64,000 nucleotides of DNA from an uncultured Chlorobiaceae bacterium (lineage in GTDB: Bacteria > Bacteroidota > Ignavibacteria > UBA10030 > SZUA-254). The stretch spans positions 48,168-112,167 of the forward strand of contig CAYYIJ010000001.1 of assembly GCA_964471945.1 (NCBI GenBank). Reading direction: 5' to 3'. The notes under the pieces are model-generated. The model was not told the origin of the DNA. It saw only the letters and a program-made list of their open reading frames with translations, and made no database searches. Positions 1 through 8,960 of this stretch are shown one piece after another. The translations under genes and the position numbers were made by a program. The first letter of the stretch is position 1, and the number at the start of each line of letters is the position of its first letter.

Positions 1-708
1 AAACTGCACATTGTCCATTGCCCAGAAATACCAGTTTGCCAGTTCGCTGAAAAATCTTTTGTTGAGCTCTTTGGTATCAAGTGTTTTCTGCCATGCGTTG
101 TGCAGCTCAACAAAGTCTGTGAACTGAAATTTATCTTTGAGTTCATCAAACGAAAGGTCAAACAAAATTTCAATGTGGGCTCTGTGCGGGTTTGCAATGT
201 TGATGTCTTTAATCAAGGTAACTTTTTCCAATACGTCCTTGTTTGTGCCACGCTTGCTTTCTCGGCGGTTAATCATTGATAAGGTGAGGAACTTTCCATA
301 ACGGAAAAATACCATCACGGGCATATCAAATAATCTGTTTATCAAGCGAGTAATATCTGAGAGTCGTCCTCGTGGGTAATCATTTTGTTTAAGCTCAACT
401 GCAAAAAACAGATACGATTGAATAAGGTCTGTGTCAATTGTATTAAAAAGCCCATCCCCAGATTTTATCTCATCATCGGTCAACTGGAAAATCAACTCGG
501 CAGTTTTAATCTCATCAAACCTTGACTGGTCAACACCTCGTTCGTCTGCCCGTCTCTTTAACGAATCAAAATTAATCTTGGTTTTCTTTTTACTTTGGTA
601 ACCGAGAACATTCAGGAGTACCAAACAATTGGATTCAACATTTCCTTTTGAAAACGCTGTGAGAGCTTCTTGGATCAGCTCTCGGTGTCGCACACCATCC
701 GTTTTCAT
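1..708 (-). CDS. Partial CDS, N-terminal 236 aa, continuing past the left edge. PD-(D/E)XK-type N-terminal domain resembling MmeI/YeeA-family Type IIG RM or DISARM DrmMI-like methyltransferase N-termini.
   Basis: Reverse-strand frame is open from the ATG (rc of 706-708) to position 1, checked codon by codon. ATGA overlap with the stop of the DUF1016 gene implies translational coupling. Motifs: GDGLFNTIDTD...LFFAVELK (D...ExK), then VMVFFRYGKFLTL. Assignment to a Type IIG/methylase family is inference from recalled MmeI N-terminal layout. Confidence 0.5.
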   Translation of the reverse strand, partial: MKTDGVRHRELIQEALTAFSKGNVESNCLVLLNVLGYQSKKKTKINFDSLKRRADERGVDQSRFDEIKTAELIFQLTDDEIKSGDGLFNTIDTDLIQSYLFFAVELKQNDYPRGRLSDITRLINRLFDMPVMVFFRYGKFLTLSMINRRESKRGTNKDVLEKVTLIKDINIANPHRAHIEILFDLSFDELKDKFQFTDFVELHNAWQKTLDTKELNKRFFSELANWYFWAMDNVQF

Positions 709-1775
709 TTTTCGAATCTCTCCTTTGCCGCAATGACTGCCTTATGGAGTTTTTCTTCGAGAAGTTTCTTCGGCGGCAAACCGGTCAGGTATTGCGCCAC
801 TCGGATATTTCCTTTATTGAGCATCAGGAGTTCAATGTGCTCATCTGATTTGTCAGCGCAGAGTATTAAACCAACGGGTGATTCTTCTCCGTTAGCTCGT
901 TCATACTTGTCAAGCCAGTTCAGATACAATTCCATCTGCGATTTATAAGCGGCTTTGAATTTGCCTAACTTCAAATCGATGACAACCAACCTGCGGAGTT
1001 TTCGGTGGTAGAAGAGAAGGTCGATGTAATAATCTTCATTATCAACAGTGATGCGTCTTTGTCTTGCTAAGAAAGCGAAATCGGTTCCTAGTTCAATAAT
1101 GAATCTTTGTAACTCAGAAACGATTGCAGATTCTAAATCCTTTTCGCTGTATGTATCTTTTAGTCCAAGAAAATCAAGAAAGTACGGGTCACGGAACACG
1201 AGGTCGGGAGTGAGTTTATTACCATCTCGAAGAGATTTCAATTCTTGTTTGATGAGCCTGTCGGGCTTCTTCGAGATTGCCGTGCGTTCGTAGAGCATAC
1301 TCGATATTTTGTCACGCAGAGTGCGAACACTCCATCGTTCGATACGGCACATTTCTGCGTAAAAATTACGTTGAAGATTATCTTCGAGTGCAATAAGCTC
1401 CACGAAGTGGCTCCAGCCCAATTGTTGCGACAGTGTCGCAACAATCTTAGAGCGTGGAAATTTTTCAGCAAATGTCACCATCCGTGTCAATGCACTGTAA
1501 GTAAATCCTTTTCCATATTCGTTTGTCAATTGTGCAGACAATGTCTGCAATATCTGTTTCCCGTATTCTGCCCTCTGTTCACCGAGGGTGCCCTTAAGAA
1601 TTCTTGTGCCGATTTGCCAGTACAACATGACAAGCGTAGCGTTAACTGTTTGAATGACCTGCGACCGAGCAGTCTCAATAAGCGAACGAATCTCCCCAAA
1701 TAATTTTTGCGTTGCTTGTTCTGGCTTTGCAGGCTGAGATTTGGTAATCCTTTTAAAGTTTTTTCTTTCCCTCAT
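705..1775 (-). CDS. DUF1016 / YhcG-family PD-(D/E)XK nuclease.
   Basis: 356 aa. N-terminal LYWQIGTRIL region and C-terminal YIDLLFYHRKLRRLVVIDLKLGKF (D...ELK-like) are typical of YhcG/DUF1016, which are frequently embedded in RM/defence loci. Confidence 0.8.
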   Translation of the reverse strand: MRERKNFKRITKSQPAKPEQATQKLFGEIRSLIETARSQVIQTVNATLVMLYWQIGTRILKGTLGEQRAEYGKQILQTLSAQLTNEYGKGFTYSALTRMVTFAEKFPRSKIVATLSQQLGWSHFVELIALEDNLQRNFYAEMCRIERWSVRTLRDKISSMLYERTAISKKPDRLIKQELKSLRDGNKLTPDLVFRDPYFLDFLGLKDTYSEKDLESAIVSELQRFIIELGTDFAFLARQRRITVDNEDYYIDLLFYHRKLRRLVVIDLKLGKFKAAYKSQMELYLNWLDKYERANGEESPVGLILCADKSDEHIELLMLNKGNIRVAQYLTGLPPKKLLEEKLHKAVIAAKERFEK

Positions 1776-1793: not shown

Positions 1794-4700
1794 CTATTTG
1801 ATAATTAGCCAAGTAATCAGTTCAAAGTCGTCTTCAACCTTGGGTAACTGGTCTTCGTCAATCAATCTTCCACCTCTGCCCTCTAATTGCATTTCATTTC
1901 GTCTGTCAAGCAAAGATGCAATATTGCTCACTGCCTTTTGCATCATACCAGAATACAAATCCATTTTCTTACCCTCGTCAGTTTCTTCATTAAATAATCT
2001 ACACAATTCTTCCAAATATTCTTTCCTGCCTGAGCATAAAAGTCGGAACATTTCTAAGATTTGTTTTGGGTGTGTAAAACTAAAACGCACATCACCGTTG
2101 TTTCGTACATACACGAGATAATATGGTTGCAATGGATTTACCTTTTCAGTTGCTTTAGCATCTTCTTTTTGTTTCAAACAAAATATAACTCCTGGCTGCA
2201 ATACATCTTTCGCTTTTTCTGTAAGGTTTAAGCTCTCAACTTCTTTTGATGTAAGTGCATATATCCCAAAAAGTGCATCGTCCAATTTATCTTTGTTCTC
2301 TTGTAGATAATTAATCAGGTCAATACGAAAATCATCCAATGTAAATTCACTCAACGAGGGAATATTTTCGTTGAGGTCATCCATTTCTAATACTTCATCT
2401 TTCATCCTTAACAACTGTTTATCACGATAACGTAATTCTGTTTCTACCAAATCTTTTATTTCATCAGGATTTAATACATTATCTTCATGCGTTGCGGTTA
2501 CATCTACCAGTGCCATCCGTGCCTCAACACGATATTTCAGTTTGATATATTTGTCTAAGTTTGGCGTAGGCCAAAAGTTTACCAAATGAATCTTATCGTT
2601 CAGCGAACCGATGCGGTCAATTCTACCAAATCGCTGAATTACTCTGACTGGATTCCAGTGAATGTCATAGTTAATAAGGTAATCGCAATCCTGTAAATTC
2701 TGTCCTTCACTTATGCAGTCTGTTGCTATCAAAATATCAATCTCACCTTCCTGAGGCATAGCTTCTTTTAATTTTTCTCTTTGCTTGGCGATCGGGCAAA
2801 AGTTGGTCAGGATATGATTATACTCAGTGAGTTCCTTAAAACCTTTCGGTTGAAAATTTGTTCTATTACCACCCGTCCCACCAGTAACCATAGCGGTATG
2901 TAAATTTAATTCTTGCATTGCCCTATCAGCAATATTGTCATAAAGGTACGATGCTGTATCAGCGAAGGCAGTAAATATCAAAACCTTTTTATTGAATTTA
3001 CCGTCACGATTTTTGGTCGGGTTGTTAGCTTTTTGTGAAATAAGGTATCTCAGTTTCTTAAGTTTTGCATCACGGTCAGGAGTTACTGCTTCTGCATTAT
3101 CACGTAATAAGCTCAACTGTTCTTTGTCTTTTTTTAAGTCCTTAAGCCAGTTGTCAAGATGCAAATGTTTTAATTCGTATCTAAGTTTCTTACCAACTGT
3201 GTAAAGCTCATTGTATTCTTCGTCTTCTTCTCCTTCCATTTTTGTATCATCTAAATCAAATTCAGAGTCTTCGGCTTTCTTTTTTAGGTAATCTTTTATT
3301 TTTATTTCAAGTGCTTCGATTTTACTTACACATCGTTGCATTGTAATTTCAAATGATTCAACTGAACTTTCCAACCGTTTCAAAAAATTTACTTTCATCA
3401 TTCCAATCAAAAACTCTTCACGGTCTTCCTGCTTAAACACAGCCGCACCGATTGATTGTGCTTTCTCAGAATAATGTTGCTTAAATTCTTGTTTTACATA
3501 AGAAGATGGTTTGAATAATGATAATTCATATTTTTCGATTTCATCTTGTAATCTATCATAAGAAAGGAAGCTACCCTTAAGGTCAATGTCGCTGTAAATA
3601 GGGTGTGGTTTCCCTCTGTCAGGGAATAAACCAATTTTTTCCATCTCGTGGCGATAATATTTCTTTATGTGATTACGTGAGCGAGATATTGTAAGTTCAT
3701 CGAGTAACTTGAACAATGCACTATCTAATTTGTCAAGAAGTTCCTTGCTGCTGATTGCTTCTCTTTGTTTTTGCTTTGCCCAATGAGTGAATTGAGTTTG
3801 TGCAAGTTTTAAAGTTTCAGAAAAACTTTTTATTTGCAGTGTTTCTGTGAAAGCTTTATCATTATCATCTGTGATGATGCGTATTTGATTACGTAAATCC
3901 TTAAGGTTAGTGTTTACTGGTGTTGCTGAAAGTAATAATACTTTTGTTTTAACACCCGAACCAATAATATCCTGTAGTAATCTTTCGTAACGGCTCTTTC
4001 GTATAATTTTTTCATCTTCATCCTTTTTTCCTTTTGTGTCGTTACGAAAATTATGGCTTTCATCAATTACGACTAAATCGAAAGCTCCCCAGTTAAACTC
4101 TGCTAACTTTATCCCGTCTGCATCTGAAGTACCGGTAATCCGACTTAAATCTGTATGATATAATACTGTATATGAAAAGCGGTCTTTAGTGAAAGGATTT
4201 AATATATTCCCCTTGTGTGCTTGATATACTGTCCAATTGTCTTTTAACTTTTTCGGACAAATCACTAATACACGGAAGTTCTTAAGTTCAAAATATTTGA
4301 TAATTGCAAGTGCTTCATAGGTTTTACCTAAGCCAACACTATCGGCAATGATACAGCCATTGTGTCGATTAATTTTATTTATCGCTGACTTAACAGCATC
4401 CTTTTGAAAATCGAACAATGTGTTCCAGATTTGAGTATCCTTAAGCGTTCCACCTTCAGTTAGTAGGTCTGCTGATTTTTGCTTTTCTATAAAATCGTAG
4501 AAAAGATGATAAAGAGTTTTGTAATAGATAAATTCAGGTGAATAATCATGATATAGTTGTTTAAGATATTGAAGTACTTCATCTTTCACATCTTCTACCT
4601 CAACACCATCCATTTCATTGTTCCATAACTTAGTGAACCATAATCTTAAATCTTCTCTATCACGTTTGCTGTCTACTTCCAGATTCAGTTCGATGTTTTT

Positions 4701-5171
4701 ATAGGTTGATAATCCCAGTCCCCTAACAGTGAAGTTTGAACTTCCTATAATAGCATCCTCTATACCGTTATTGTTGATATGATAGAGTTTGCCATGAAGA
4801 AAATTAACTTTTTTTACTGAACGAATTTCAACTTTCTTTTCAATCCAATCCGAACATTCTCTTGCAATACGGTTTTGCTCAAGTACATTCACAAGTTCAA
4901 TATTTTCATCTTGAATCATGAATGCTTTCTTAGATGCTTTAGATGGGTCGAGGGATTTGGTAAAACTTGGGTCACCATATAAAAACCGAAGTGAATTGAT
5001 TTGTCCCAATTCATTTTTCAATGCTTCATAAGCATAAATAGTGAAAAATGCAGAAACGACAGACATGTCACTCCCCGGTTTGATTTTTCCCTTTAAGAAA
5101 TCACCTACAGAACCATGCTGATGATTGTCTTTTATGGAAGATAAATTTCTTTCTCTTGATGTATCAGCCAT
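1794..5171 (-). CDS. Fusion protein: N-terminal PLD-like (HKD) nuclease domain + SNF2/Rad54-family helicase + ~300-aa uncharacterized C-terminal domain.
   Basis: 1125 aa. HKD-like motif LHGKLYHINNNGIEDAIIGSSNFT near the N-terminus. SNF2 motifs: SVGLGKT (I), VVIDESHNFRN (II), LLLSATPVNTNLKDL (III), ILIATDCISEGQNLQ...HWNPVRVIQRFGRIDRIGS (V/VI). Confidence 0.85.
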   Translation of the reverse strand: MADTSRERNLSSIKDNHQHGSVGDFLKGKIKPGSDMSVVSAFFTIYAYEALKNELGQINSLRFLYGDPSFTKSLDPSKASKKAFMIQDENIELVNVLEQNRIARECSDWIEKKVEIRSVKKVNFLHGKLYHINNNGIEDAIIGSSNFTVRGLGLSTYKNIELNLEVDSKRDREDLRLWFTKLWNNEMDGVEVEDVKDEVLQYLKQLYHDYSPEFIYYKTLYHLFYDFIEKQKSADLLTEGGTLKDTQIWNTLFDFQKDAVKSAINKINRHNGCIIADSVGLGKTYEALAIIKYFELKNFRVLVICPKKLKDNWTVYQAHKGNILNPFTKDRFSYTVLYHTDLSRITGTSDADGIKLAEFNWGAFDLVVIDESHNFRNDTKGKKDEDEKIIRKSRYERLLQDIIGSGVKTKVLLLSATPVNTNLKDLRNQIRIITDDNDKAFTETLQIKSFSETLKLAQTQFTHWAKQKQREAISSKELLDKLDSALFKLLDELTISRSRNHIKKYYRHEMEKIGLFPDRGKPHPIYSDIDLKGSFLSYDRLQDEIEKYELSLFKPSSYVKQEFKQHYSEKAQSIGAAVFKQEDREEFLIGMMKVNFLKRLESSVESFEITMQRCVSKIEALEIKIKDYLKKKAEDSEFDLDDTKMEGEEDEEYNELYTVGKKLRYELKHLHLDNWLKDLKKDKEQLSLLRDNAEAVTPDRDAKLKKLRYLISQKANNPTKNRDGKFNKKVLIFTAFADTASYLYDNIADRAMQELNLHTAMVTGGTGGNRTNFQPKGFKELTEYNHILTNFCPIAKQREKLKEAMPQEGEIDILIATDCISEGQNLQDCDYLINYDIHWNPVRVIQRFGRIDRIGSLNDKIHLVNFWPTPNLDKYIKLKYRVEARMALVDVTATHEDNVLNPDEIKDLVETELRYRDKQLLRMKDEVLEMDDLNENIPSLSEFTLDDFRIDLINYLQENKDKLDDALFGIYALTSKEVESLNLTEKAKDVLQPGVIFCLKQKEDAKATEKVNPLQPYYLVYVRNNGDVRFSFTHPKQILEMFRLLCSGRKEYLEELCRLFNEETDEGKKMDLYSGMMQKAVSNIASLLDRRNEMQLEGRGGRLIDEDQLPKVEDDFELITWLIIK

Positions 5172-5515: not shown

Positions 5516-6360
5516 TCAATTTAAAGGTATAGAAATCTTGTTGACCGCATTATGAAGCTCACTCGCTGCAAGATGAGAATAAACCTCAGTAACCTTCACA
5601 CTGGAATGCCCAAGAAGCTTCTGCACCTCATAAATGCTCACCCCATCCTGTACAAGCCAGCTTGCAAAAGTATGTCTCAAGCTGTGAAAGTGGAGTTTAT
5701 CGTTTAATCCTGCAACGCTTACATACTCTTTAAATTTATGAGTAACAAAACCCTCTTTGACCTTAACATCGCTAAGCGGTAGTGTTCGCCTTTTGCCCTG
5801 TTTTGTCTTAAACGTTGGATTGCTCTTAACCTGAATTAGCTTTCGCTGCAAATCAACATCCTGCCAGCGTAAGTTGATAATTTCTCCACGCCTCATTCCT
5901 GTCAATACTGCAAATATTACTATTTCCTTAAGCCAGTTTTCTTTGATAATCAAAATGAGTTTTTGAAAGTCTTCTTTGGTGAAAAATGCAGGAGGCAATT
6001 CAGGTGTGTGTACAAGCTGTACGTTGCTGAACGGATTGCTTTCAATATGCCGTGGAGTAATATCAGTGAGAAGGCAATCTCCTGCGACCGTGTGAAGGTG
6101 TCTCAATCCAATTACAAAAATATCTACTGTTGGCTTTGCATAGGTTGCCCTTGCGTAAGAAAGATACTCTTGTGTGAGTTGTGTAAGGGTTTTTGTTTTT
6201 GGCTTCGACTATCATAACGCCTTGAACTCTGTCAGCTTTTTCAGCGCTTCATACTTGAGAGAACATTTTGAGGATTTCCAGCGCTTCTTACCTTGTTCAT
6301 CAGAATAACCAATATAATAAATGCTATTACGCTTCCAGAGGTAAAACTTTGGTGAGAGAA
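5516..6360 (-). pseudogene. Tyrosine recombinase/integrase, apparently frameshifted and N-terminally degraded.
   Basis: Catalytic C-terminal domain is in one frame (LRHTFASWLVQDGVSIYEVQKLLGHSSVKVTEVYSHL; R..HxxR..Y). It is extendable only to an ATG at 6212-6214. A short arm-binding-like N-terminal segment (KFYLWKRNSIYYIGYSDEQGKKRWKSSKCSLKYEALKKL) lies in a different frame at ~6210-6360, with no ATG, and ends in a stop that overlaps the other frame. Confidence 0.55.
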
Positions 6361-6373
6361 CCTATCTTTTTAG

Positions 6374-6448
6374 TCGGAACGGCGGGATTTGAACCCGCGA
6401 CCCCTTGCACCCCAAGCAAGTGCGCTAGCCGGGCTGCGCCACGTTCCG
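6374..6448 (-). tRNA. tRNA-Pro (anticodon GGG).
   Basis: 75-nt cloverleaf read on the minus strand: acceptor CGGAACG/CGTTCCG, anticodon stem CTTGC/GCAAG with loop TTGGGGT (G37), T-arm GCGGG-TTCAAAT-CCCGC, discriminator A, no encoded CCA. Confidence 0.85.
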
Positions 6449-7820: not shown

Positions 7821-8960
7821 ATGCGTTTCTCTACAAAAGCAATTCACGCAGGCCAGAGGCCTGATCCAACTACCGGGGCAGTAATGACACCGGTTTATTT
7901 AACTTCGACGTATGTTCAAAAAGAAATCGGAAAACATAGCGGCTATGTTTATTCTCGTATTGCCAATCCGACACGGACTGCACTTGAGCAAAACATTGCC
8001 GCGCTGGAAAATGGGAAGCATGGTGTTGCATTCGGGTCTGGCATGGCAGCGATCGATGCAATCTTTCGATCGCTGAAACCATGCGACCATGTAATCGTTT
8101 CACACAATGTTTATGGCGGTACATACCGGATTGCAAAAAATATACTCGAAGATTTTCGGTTACAATTCGATTTCATCGACACAACAAATCTGAAATTGGT
8201 CGAACAGTCCATCCGTCAAGAAACAAGAATGATTTTCGTTGAGAGTCCAACAAATCCAACGATGGAAATAACTGATCTAAGTGCCATTGCAAATATCGCA
8301 AAGCGATATCGCCTTATCTCCGTATGCGACAACACATTTGCAACACCTTACTTACAACAGCCGCTTGAATATGGAATCGACATCGTGGTTCATAGTCTTA
8401 CTAAATATCTCAACGGTCACAGCGACATGCTCGGTGGGTTGGTTGTTACCGATGATGCTAAGATTGCAGAAATGTTGCGTTTTATCCAAAAATCTACCGG
8501 TGGAATATTGAGTTCTTTCGAAGCATGGCTTTGTTTGAGAGGAATTAAAACCTTACCTATTCGGATGGAACAACACAGTAAAAATGCAATGGCCATTGCA
8601 CAGTGGCTCTCTAAGCAAAGGAAGATCAAGCGTGTTCTATATCCGGGGCTTCCTTCACATCCCCAGCATAAACTGGCTAAAAAGCAAATGAAAAAATTTG
8701 GCGGAATGATTTCTTTTGATTTAGGCAGCTTCAAAAAGACAAAGAAATTTTTGAAAAAAGTACAACTTTGTGCTCTCGCTGAAAGTTTGGGCGGCGTAGA
8801 GACTCTAATATCACATCCTGCAACAATGACACATGCAGCGGTTCAAAAAGATCAAAGACAGAGGATTGGTATTACTGATGGACTAATACGTATATCAGTT
8901 GGCTTGGAAGATATCGATGATATAACCACGGATATTCAACGAGCTTTAAAAAACATTTAA
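7821..8960 (+). CDS. Cys/Met-metabolism PLP-dependent enzyme (cystathionine gamma-synthase/lyase or methionine gamma-lyase family).
   Basis: 379 aa. N-terminal STKAIHAGQ...TGAVMTPVYLTSTY and overall trans-sulfuration family architecture. Confidence 0.85.
   Translation: MRFSTKAIHAGQRPDPTTGAVMTPVYLTSTYVQKEIGKHSGYVYSRIANPTRTALEQNIAALENGKHGVAFGSGMAAIDAIFRSLKPCDHVIVSHNVYGGTYRIAKNILEDFRLQFDFIDTTNLKLVEQSIRQETRMIFVESPTNPTMEITDLSAIANIAKRYRLISVCDNTFATPYLQQPLEYGIDIVVHSLTKYLNGHSDMLGGLVVTDDAKIAEMLRFIQKSTGGILSSFEAWLCLRGIKTLPIRMEQHSKNAMAIAQWLSKQRKIKRVLYPGLPSHPQHKLAKKQMKKFGGMISFDLGSFKKTKKFLKKVQLCALAESLGGVETLISHPATMTHAAVQKDQRQRIGITDGLIRISVGLEDIDDITTDIQRALKNI

Follow-up and report, generated by a model that had tools for sequence, protein, structure and literature searches.

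What protein begins at the left edge of this 64,000-nucleotide stretch of DNA from an uncultured Chlorobiaceae bacterium (contig CAYYIJ010000001.1; the whole stretch is hereafter called the window), where the minus strand stays open to the last letter, and what might it do alongside the nuclease and helicase genes encoded upstream of it? A first-pass annotation, made from the sequence alone, had read this edge open reading frame (ORF) as most likely the PD-(D/E)XK nuclease domain of an MmeI-like Type IIG restriction enzyme, translationally coupled to a DUF1016 nuclease gene. The current analysis reveals that the edge ORF is a real gene encoding the first sixth of a DNA adenine methylase of 1,361 amino acids (aa). 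With moderate confidence, and judging from sequence comparisons, we propose that this protein serves as the modification/specificity subunit of a two-gene, ATP-dependent, restriction-modification-like defence system, in which a neighboring helicase would supply both the motor and the nuclease. The features on which this proposal is built are the following.

Positions 1 to 708, minus strand: the 5' 708 nt (aa 1-236) of a 4,086-nt methyltransferase/specificity gene encoding 1,361 aa, defined by the open frame and by contigs identical to the window.
Positions 705 to 708, minus strand: ATGA, in which the DUF1016 stop overlaps the methyltransferase start (ATG 708-706, TGA 707-705).
Positions 1794 to 5171, minus strand: a PLD (HKD) nuclease plus SNF2 helicase gene encoding 1,125 aa, defined by Pfam, PADLOC, and synteny.

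Translation of the window from position 708 to position 1 of the minus strand yields 236 codons lacking a stop, which has a chance probability of ~1.6e-7 given the window GC content of 0.384 and a stop probability of 0.064 per codon. The gene was completed with the help of public assemblies, where the exact sequence of the DUF1016 protein is found on two metagenome contigs, L001 and L002. Over 6,397 and 4,880 nt, respectively, these are identical to the window (0 mismatches), and they differ from each other by 1 nt across the 3,484 nt past the window edge. The open ORF reported by the first-pass annotation is confirmed. Both contigs carry the frame on to 1,361 aa (full gene L001:5690-9775), so the stop or frameshift shortly beyond the edge, against which the annotation had cautioned, does not occur. 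The fragment has 345 homologues at E<=1e-3 (best 3.6e-78), and an exhaustive hidden Markov model search recovered 1,101 cluster representatives at the same threshold, always with the N-terminal domain located at aa ~38-200 of proteins ~1,150-1,380 aa in length. We also considered a free-standing family of proteins of <=413 aa, but their contexts identified these as contig-end fragments or decayed genes, the full-length members being ~1,150-1,380 aa.

The completed protein consists, in order, of a DUF4391-like N-terminal domain (N-domain), a helical linker, an Eco57I-family gamma-class N6-adenine methyltransferase (MTase), and a variable C-terminal specificity domain, or target recognition domain (TRD). 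The MTase motifs are intact (X, GSFYTP at 476; I, DPACGSG at 778; IV, NPPY at 1021), Pfam detects Eco57I at 2.2e-26 (93 bits) and N6_Mtase at 5.8e-12, and the full-length protein matches the PADLOC 'REase_MTase_IIG' models with a best value of 5.5e-55. A sequence search of the PDB with the full protein returned only weak matches, to the TaqI MTase and TnpA-REP regions. Eight full-length relatives exhibit the same plan, with sub-threshold DUF4391 matches, Eco57I/N6_Mtase, and a TaqI_C specificity domain. Among the relatives, identity ranges from 47-59% in the N-domain and from 34-69% in the MTase core, and the TRD is hypervariable. Of the features that define a Type IIG enzyme in the broad sense (a fused REase-MTase-TRD), the protein carries the gamma-class N6-adenine MTase motifs X, I, and IV together with a fused TRD; as to an endonuclease domain in the same chain, it has a motif that the family does not conserve, and the searches returned no nuclease profile or fold match. 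The Type-IIG-style architecture foreseen by the first-pass annotation (an extra N-terminal domain, a helical linker, an MTase, and a specificity domain) holds, whereas its MmeI-like nuclease identity is not supported. MmeI_Mtase scores 23.2 bits in the 1,361-aa protein, under the cut-off of 27, and exceeds the cut-off in three of the eight relatives, while MmeI_TRD and MmeI_C were never detected by Pfam in the protein itself or in these relatives, the latter having TaqI_C instead. At the 3' end of the gene, a 48-aa ORF (L001:9741-9887) overlaps the methylase stop and repeats the C-terminal tail motif typical of these methylases (...VYKLYGLTEDEI...; ...LDNEIDRMVYKLYGLTEDEIKIVEG), the methylase of the window genome itself ending in ...IFPLYELTDEEN.... 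The small ORF is probably a leftover of specificity-domain replacement.

The second core protein is the 1,125-aa product of the helicase gene. Its Pfam domains are PLDc_2, RE_NgoFVII, SNF2-rel_dom, ResIII, and Helicase_C, it matches the PADLOC model C3a139 'HKD+Snf2' at 7.6e-132, and its motifs include a Walker A GLGKT at 280, DESH at 370, and an HxK...GSSN signature in the PLD domain, whose HxK residues are H126 and K128. Scanning the GTDB species, each represented by a single genome, identified at least 524 relatives of the methylase, and 80 loci were fetched for synteny. A homologue of the helicase is encoded upstream of the methylase and on the same strand in 73 of these 80 loci, with 52-78% identity and usually at full length, and five of the seven loci lacking it have <1 kb of upstream DNA. 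Among the 67 loci where the junction could be assessed, 29 have the helicase stop next to or overlapping the start of the methylase, and 38 have inserted DNA between the two. In the window, no terminator-like site was found on the minus strand between the three genes. Such consistent co-encoding, with stop/start overlap in many loci, would fit the logic of two-subunit ATP-dependent restriction-modification, as in Type III or a split Type ISP system, in which the two subunits would act as a complex. Many copies have decayed as well (L003/L020, L004-L008, L089), with helicases split into 2-3 ORFs and methylases split or truncated, including one locus with pieces of 413, 89, and 737 aa and others with remnants of 711 aa, 265 aa, or 305 aa, the last beside IS110 transposase genes. 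The only copy recovered from plasmids by tblastn is likewise decayed (L089, on the Planktothrix plasmid NZ_LR882966.1).

What we infer regarding mechanism starts from the gene content, the intact catalytic motifs of both core proteins, their tight linkage, and the hypervariable specificity domain, and is modeled upon Type I, III, and ISP enzymes as well as PLD nucleases such as BfiI, Nuc, and SauUSI. Presumably, the methylase/TRD subunit would read a short asymmetric DNA motif and methylate the host copies. On unmethylated foreign DNA, the same subunit would recruit or license the helicase subunit, which would then translocate at the expense of ATP and cut through dimerized HKD domains. Since each chain contains a single HKD motif, two motors probably must meet. 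The N-domain and the helical linker would couple the methylase to the motor-nuclease. The closest parallel is found in the Type ISP enzymes, such as LlaGI and LlaBIII, in which a nuclease, an SF2 motor, an intervening module, a gamma-MTase, and a TRD follow one another in a single chain. The same order of functions is present here, except that it is split over two genes, and cleavage after ATP-driven translocation would be expected by analogy. Given that the order nuclease-helicase followed by N-domain-MTase-TRD is collinear with the single-chain Type ISP enzymes, the DUF4391-like domain and linker sit at the position where a coupler would be expected.

The edge fragment encodes this N-domain, and its function is where the alternatives diverge. 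An AlphaFold2 model of the fragment, built on 71 homologues, reached a pLDDT of 88.3 and a pTM of 0.85, and delimits the following parts.

Positions 511 to 708, minus strand: N-terminal helical region, aa 1-66, with AlphaFold2 helices at 5-20, 24-34, 47-57, and 62-66.
Positions 154 to 510, minus strand: DUF4391-like alpha/beta core, aa 67-185, defined by Pfam PF14335 and the AlphaFold2 models.
Positions 388 to 435, minus strand: D...ExK motif as read in the sequence (D92 at 435-433, D94 at 429-427, E105 at 396-394, K107 at 390-388).
Positions 1 to 153, minus strand: start of a conserved helical linker, aa 186-236 (continuing to ~aa 470 past the edge), with AlphaFold2 helices at 187-194, 199-209, and 212-233.

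In the alpha/beta core, the model places strands at 67-77, 98-106, 131-137, 140-148, and 160-170 and helices at 113-125 and 176-184. The hydrophobic strand and the helical segment previously singled out in the fragment (VMVFFRYGKFLTL, aa 131-143, and KELNKRFFSELANWYFWAMDN, aa 213-233) are borne out by the predicted strands 131-137 and 140-148 and by helix 212-233. In the homologue alignment, L35 and Y37 of the N-terminal region are invariant and G36 nearly so, the core contains the invariant residues Q75, R113, R121, N124, P130, R148, D158, and K162, a further set is invariant or near-invariant (R149, D168, H175, R176, H178, E180, and D184), and W206 and W226 of the linker are invariant. The sole Pfam family matching the fragment is DUF4391 (PF14335), which aligns to aa 96-210 with 22.4 bits versus a gathering threshold of 29.9. 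PF14335 also matches 70 of the 71 homologues at E<=1 (best 4.6e-8) and the eight full-length relatives at 19-28 bits. By these profile scores, the N-domain is a divergent relative of DUF4391 as opposed to a curated member, since it falls under the gathering threshold, and unlike the Pfam family it is fused to a methylase and not free-standing. No function is recorded for DUF4391 in the searchable literature, where none of its mentions is functional and one is probably a typographical error for DUF7941. As a separate observation, the homologues of Brocadiaceae (e.g. L040 and L057) contain a glycine-rich insertion of 20-25 aa (SPAGGGVRRTGVE...) directly before the invariant HRAH motif of the N-domain.

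The N-domain is about as conserved as the methylase core and therefore has been selected for something other than canonical PD-(D/E)XK chemistry. It is under strong purifying selection but has lost the ExK lysine in most family members, and its likeliest role among those we considered would be that of a non-catalytic module coupling the methylase to the helicase-nuclease, an assignment that we nonetheless hold as tentative. The strongest competitor of this coupling role is a function in DNA binding or modification sensing, in which the DUF4391-like domain would read the methylation state or clamp the DNA rather than engage the helicase. Its invariant basic and polar residues (R113, R121, N124, R148, R149, K162, H175, R176, and H178) could contact nucleic acid, the existence of DUF4391 as a separate Pfam family of ~230 aa suggests that the module is autonomous, and a role in sensing nucleic acids has been suggested for inactive restriction-endonuclease-like domains of related helicase systems (PMC12839542), which we count in favor of this option. 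However, the fold searches linked the domain to none of the known DNA-binding or reader domains, and we regard a purely sensory role as unlikely. The coupling and sensing roles could both be true.

Somewhat less probable still is the proposal of the first-pass annotation taken to its full extent, in which an active PD-(D/E)XK N-domain would make the protein an MmeI-like Type IIG/IIL enzyme able to cut and methylate on its own, and the genes for the helicase and DUF1016 would be mere neighbors. The signature that inspired it is present in this sequence, as D92/D94...E105-L-K107 followed by a helix and strands, and the ELK is retained in the closest relatives (e.g. L009 and P0002). Additional points in its favor include weak Pfam matches to MmeI_hel (in six of the 71 homologues) and MmeI_Mtase, the PADLOC Type IIG match of the full protein, and one non-significant hhalign alignment, which sets FAVELK on the DLK motif of YhcG_C. 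Despite this, the signature does not behave as a conserved catalytic motif. Among 121 sequences, 82 have D and 25 have N at position 92, 73 have E at position 105, and 42 have K at position 107, which is otherwise S, R, T, E, or A. Among 166 homologues, D92, E/D105, and K107 occur together in just 17, E/D105 and K107 in 30, and the ExK lysine is absent in ~80%. Furthermore, D92 borders an indel-rich, low-confidence loop (aa ~83-97, with pLDDT <50 at aa 85-93) outside any defined strand. Neither the fragment nor its 71 homologues match MmeI_N or any PD-(D/E)XK Pfam family, the fragment alone matches no PADLOC Type IIG model and returns nothing meaningful from NCBIfam and PADLOC together, and hhalign assigns a probability of 0.06% to its relationship with the genuine PD-(D/E)XK domain of DUF1016 (YhcG_C). 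Structural comparison of the N-domain model with the PDB using Foldseek found nothing at E<0.001, a PDB search with the N-domain profile gave 0 matches, and a match to DrdV was lost once the search was limited to the alpha/beta core. The protein is also unlike the Type IIG/IIL enzymes (Eco57I, BpuSI, MmeI, DrdV, and Cj0031 of C. jejuni) in having a DUF4391-like N-domain, in which most family members lack the catalytic lysine, in its absence of MmeI_TRD and MmeI_C, and in its near-obligate pairing with a helicase-nuclease gene. The last of these is a poor fit for an autonomous enzyme, as the linkage often extends to overlap and the helicase has a nuclease of its own. Membership in the MmeI-like Type IIL/IIG group is not supported for similar reasons, as there is no N-terminal MmeI_N with a conserved D...ExK, MmeI_Mtase stays below its cut-off in this protein, and the MmeI-type TRD and C-terminal domains were not found. 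Thus, an active nuclease is not supported, and the N-domain may have a degenerate restriction-endonuclease fold.

Lastly, it is highly improbable that the two genes serve no defence at all and instead form a module for epigenetics or repair, in which, for example, a regulatory methylase would work with a chromatin-remodeling-type SNF2 ATPase: the literature searched holds no phage-restriction experiment on the DUF4391-MTase family, whereas the hypervariable specificity domain, a tRNA-linked island with an integrase remnant, frequent gene decay, intervening cargo typical of defence islands (toxin-antitoxin, KilA-N, Schlafen/AlbA_2, and DUF1016 genes), and a helicase with a nuclease fused to it and with matches among the PADLOC defence models all speak against it.

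Several observations also weigh against the two-gene restriction system that we prefer. Two loci, L048 and L056, lack the helicase in spite of having 2.7-3.3 kb of upstream DNA. The coupling role of the N-domain is a prediction from its position, co-occurrence, and conservation, and with D92, E105, and K107 all present, this particular protein may retain residual nuclease activity. In addition, contig L001 ends 180 nt past the methylase stop, so a third component, for example an ABC ATPase, may be encoded downstream here.

When the two-gene restriction system is compared with known defence systems, several share its parts. The Type-2 BREX-related (BR) systems, PbeA of PbeABCD/CxC-ABC, and class 1 DISARM (DrmD, DrmMI, and the PLD protein DrmC) all combine an HKD nuclease and SNF2-type motor as the effector with an adenine methylase as the self-marker, as is proposed here. 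Matches to the DrmD and DrmMI models are weak, DrmD scoring 154.8 bits versus an NCBIfam cut-off of 610, and no gene for a DUF499/BrxC-like ATPase, DUF3780, DrmA/DrmB, or a DndE-like protein is conserved beside the methylase family in the flanks of the relatives. Class 1 DISARM was rejected because DrmA (helicase) and DrmB (DUF1998) were not found among the three genes between the integrase and the end of L001, nor are they conserved downstream in relatives, and DrmD remains below its cut-off. In Type-2 BREX-related systems, the HKD-Snf2 helicase and the N6-MTase are accompanied by a DUF499 AAA+ ATPase and by DUF3780 (PMC12839542); these two are absent upstream in the window, and the flanks of the relatives contain no conserved large ATPase, only an optional ABC ATPase of ~600 aa (eight loci). 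Membership in the BREX-related systems and in Hma was rejected as well, as their defining extra genes are lacking. Loci with the gene content and order of the window, namely a PLD+SNF2 helicase, an optional DUF1016, and a Type-IIG-like methylase, were listed previously by Milman et al. 2023 (PMC9881135). That work describes a Cj0031-like Type II restriction-modification coding sequence with a PLD+SNF helicase coding sequence upstream, and another with DUF1016 upstream, both catalogued for programmed inversions and otherwise uncharacterized there; the likeness to our locus is one of gene content and order.

Between the two core genes and beyond them lie the remaining features of the locus.

Positions 705 to 1775, minus strand: DUF1016/YhcG gene encoding 356 aa, with DUF1016_N and a YhcG_C PD-(D/E)XK domain (Pfam 1.8e-48 and 1.3e-47; PADLOC PDC-S02 1.3e-133).
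Positions 5516 to 6448, minus strand: island boundary, comprising tRNA-Pro(GGG) at 6373-6448 (ARAGORN) and a 196-aa tyrosine-integrase fragment at 5516-6106 (Phage_integrase Pfam match on L001).

Due to its ATGA overlap with the methylase, the DUF1016 gene was originally taken as the coupled partner. The overlap itself stands, with the methylase ATG and the DUF1016 stop together spanning positions 708-705, but DUF1016 proves to be only a facultative insert, and the pairing of the methylase with the PLD+SNF2 helicase further upstream had been missed. The slot that runs from the helicase stop to the start of the methylase holds an intact DUF1016 gene in seven of 67 relatives (26-36% identical to the window copy), and a short remnant persists in an eighth (L011). 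Elsewhere, DUF1016 genes occur upstream of the helicase in L050 (65% identical) and downstream of the methylase in L033 (55%), L009, and L060. Among loci L009-L088, the slot houses Pfam-recognizable genes for KilA-N, Bro-N, SLFN_AlbA_2+HATPase_c_4, ORF6N, DUF6036 nucleotidyltransferase, DUF3800, and Gp49 proteins, the last a Gp49/HigB-like toxin with a helix-turn-helix partner, as well as a MazEF-like pair (recognized by eye), and a free-standing RayT-like gene (L047:8352-8945). DUF1016 is therefore a recurrent, facultative cargo of a variable slot and not a core part, because it is intact in few slots, other genes fill the slot, and it is also found elsewhere at these loci; the ATGA is the 3' junction of its insertion. 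On the other side of the methylase, an ABC-type ATPase of ~600 aa directly follows in eight of the 45 loci with a full-length methylase (e.g. L010:13702-15513 and L003:13747-15573; Pfam SMC_N, AAA_15, and AAA_23; Walker A GENGSGKSS). It is a possible optional third component, and no third gene is universal.

The setting of the window copy is a tRNA-linked island, as can be concluded from the tRNA-Pro gene and integrase fragment beside the defence operon. The integrase fragment has a TTG start and is apparently truncated, and is followed by a terminator-like hairpin at 5438-5419. GC content is 0.34-0.36 across the helicase gene versus ~0.40 in the flanks, and L001 encodes just the three genes between the integrase and the contig end.

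Past the window edge, the methylase gene contains an in-frame RayT/Y1 (HUH) transposase domain of ~240 aa, inserted between motifs X and I (L001:7200-7990, aa ~505-765). It scores 31 bits in Pfam, its HVH (651-653) and Y711 (in YIRNNP) are intact, and it is 52-69% identical to >3,000 free-standing proteins annotated as 'REP element-mobilizing transposase RayT', two of which were examined and reside in ordinary housekeeping contexts. L011, L040, and L053 carry an insert at the same site, L023 and L051 carry part of one, and ~60 other loci have none. On a rough neighbor-joining tree, the carriers are scattered and each has a closer insert-free relative (L011 versus L010, 74.9% identical), which suggests repeated gain or lateral spread; several lineages seem to have acquired the insert independently. 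It is flanked by REP-like palindromes (L001:7182-7241 and 7853-7921) that are translated in frame as 'SIPADG'-type linkers. These include two tandem 30-nt units, each with a perfect 9-bp stem (CCATCAGCA/TGCTGATGG), with degenerate hairpins on the 3' side, and the predicted folding of each flank is far stronger than that of shuffled controls (z = -4.3 and -4.8). Such repeats are much more numerous in L011, on either side of its insert. No further copies were found in the 64-kb window. Our literature search for RayT within methylases returned nothing relevant. If functional, this arrangement would place a REP-associated transposase within another gene's reading frame, which is unusual.

Based upon these findings, the edge ORF is best annotated as the N-terminal part of a methyltransferase/specificity protein that belongs to the Eco57I family and bears a DUF4391-like domain, and not as a PD-(D/E)XK nuclease or MmeI-like enzyme, and the DUF1016 gene as embedded cargo of a recombination slot between the two subunits, which gathers toxin-antitoxin, KilA-N, Schlafen-like, and DUF1016 genes. 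It is conceivable, albeit speculative, that the pair represents a distinct, widespread, and unnamed class of ATP-dependent restriction, in which a DUF4391 adaptor would hand the unmethylated site to the motor-nuclease and in which accessory defence genes would have a landing pad built in between the two subunits; under the same conjecture, the independently gained RayT would be either a mobile domain aiming at one permissive loop or a domesticated single-stranded-DNA-binding module. The two-gene restriction-like system is compact and unaddressed by experiment in the literature available, and the known kind to which it would belong is ATP-dependent restriction-modification. The family, which numbers at least 524 loci across the GTDB species representatives and ~1,100 sequence clusters, gives DUF4391 a concrete, testable context.

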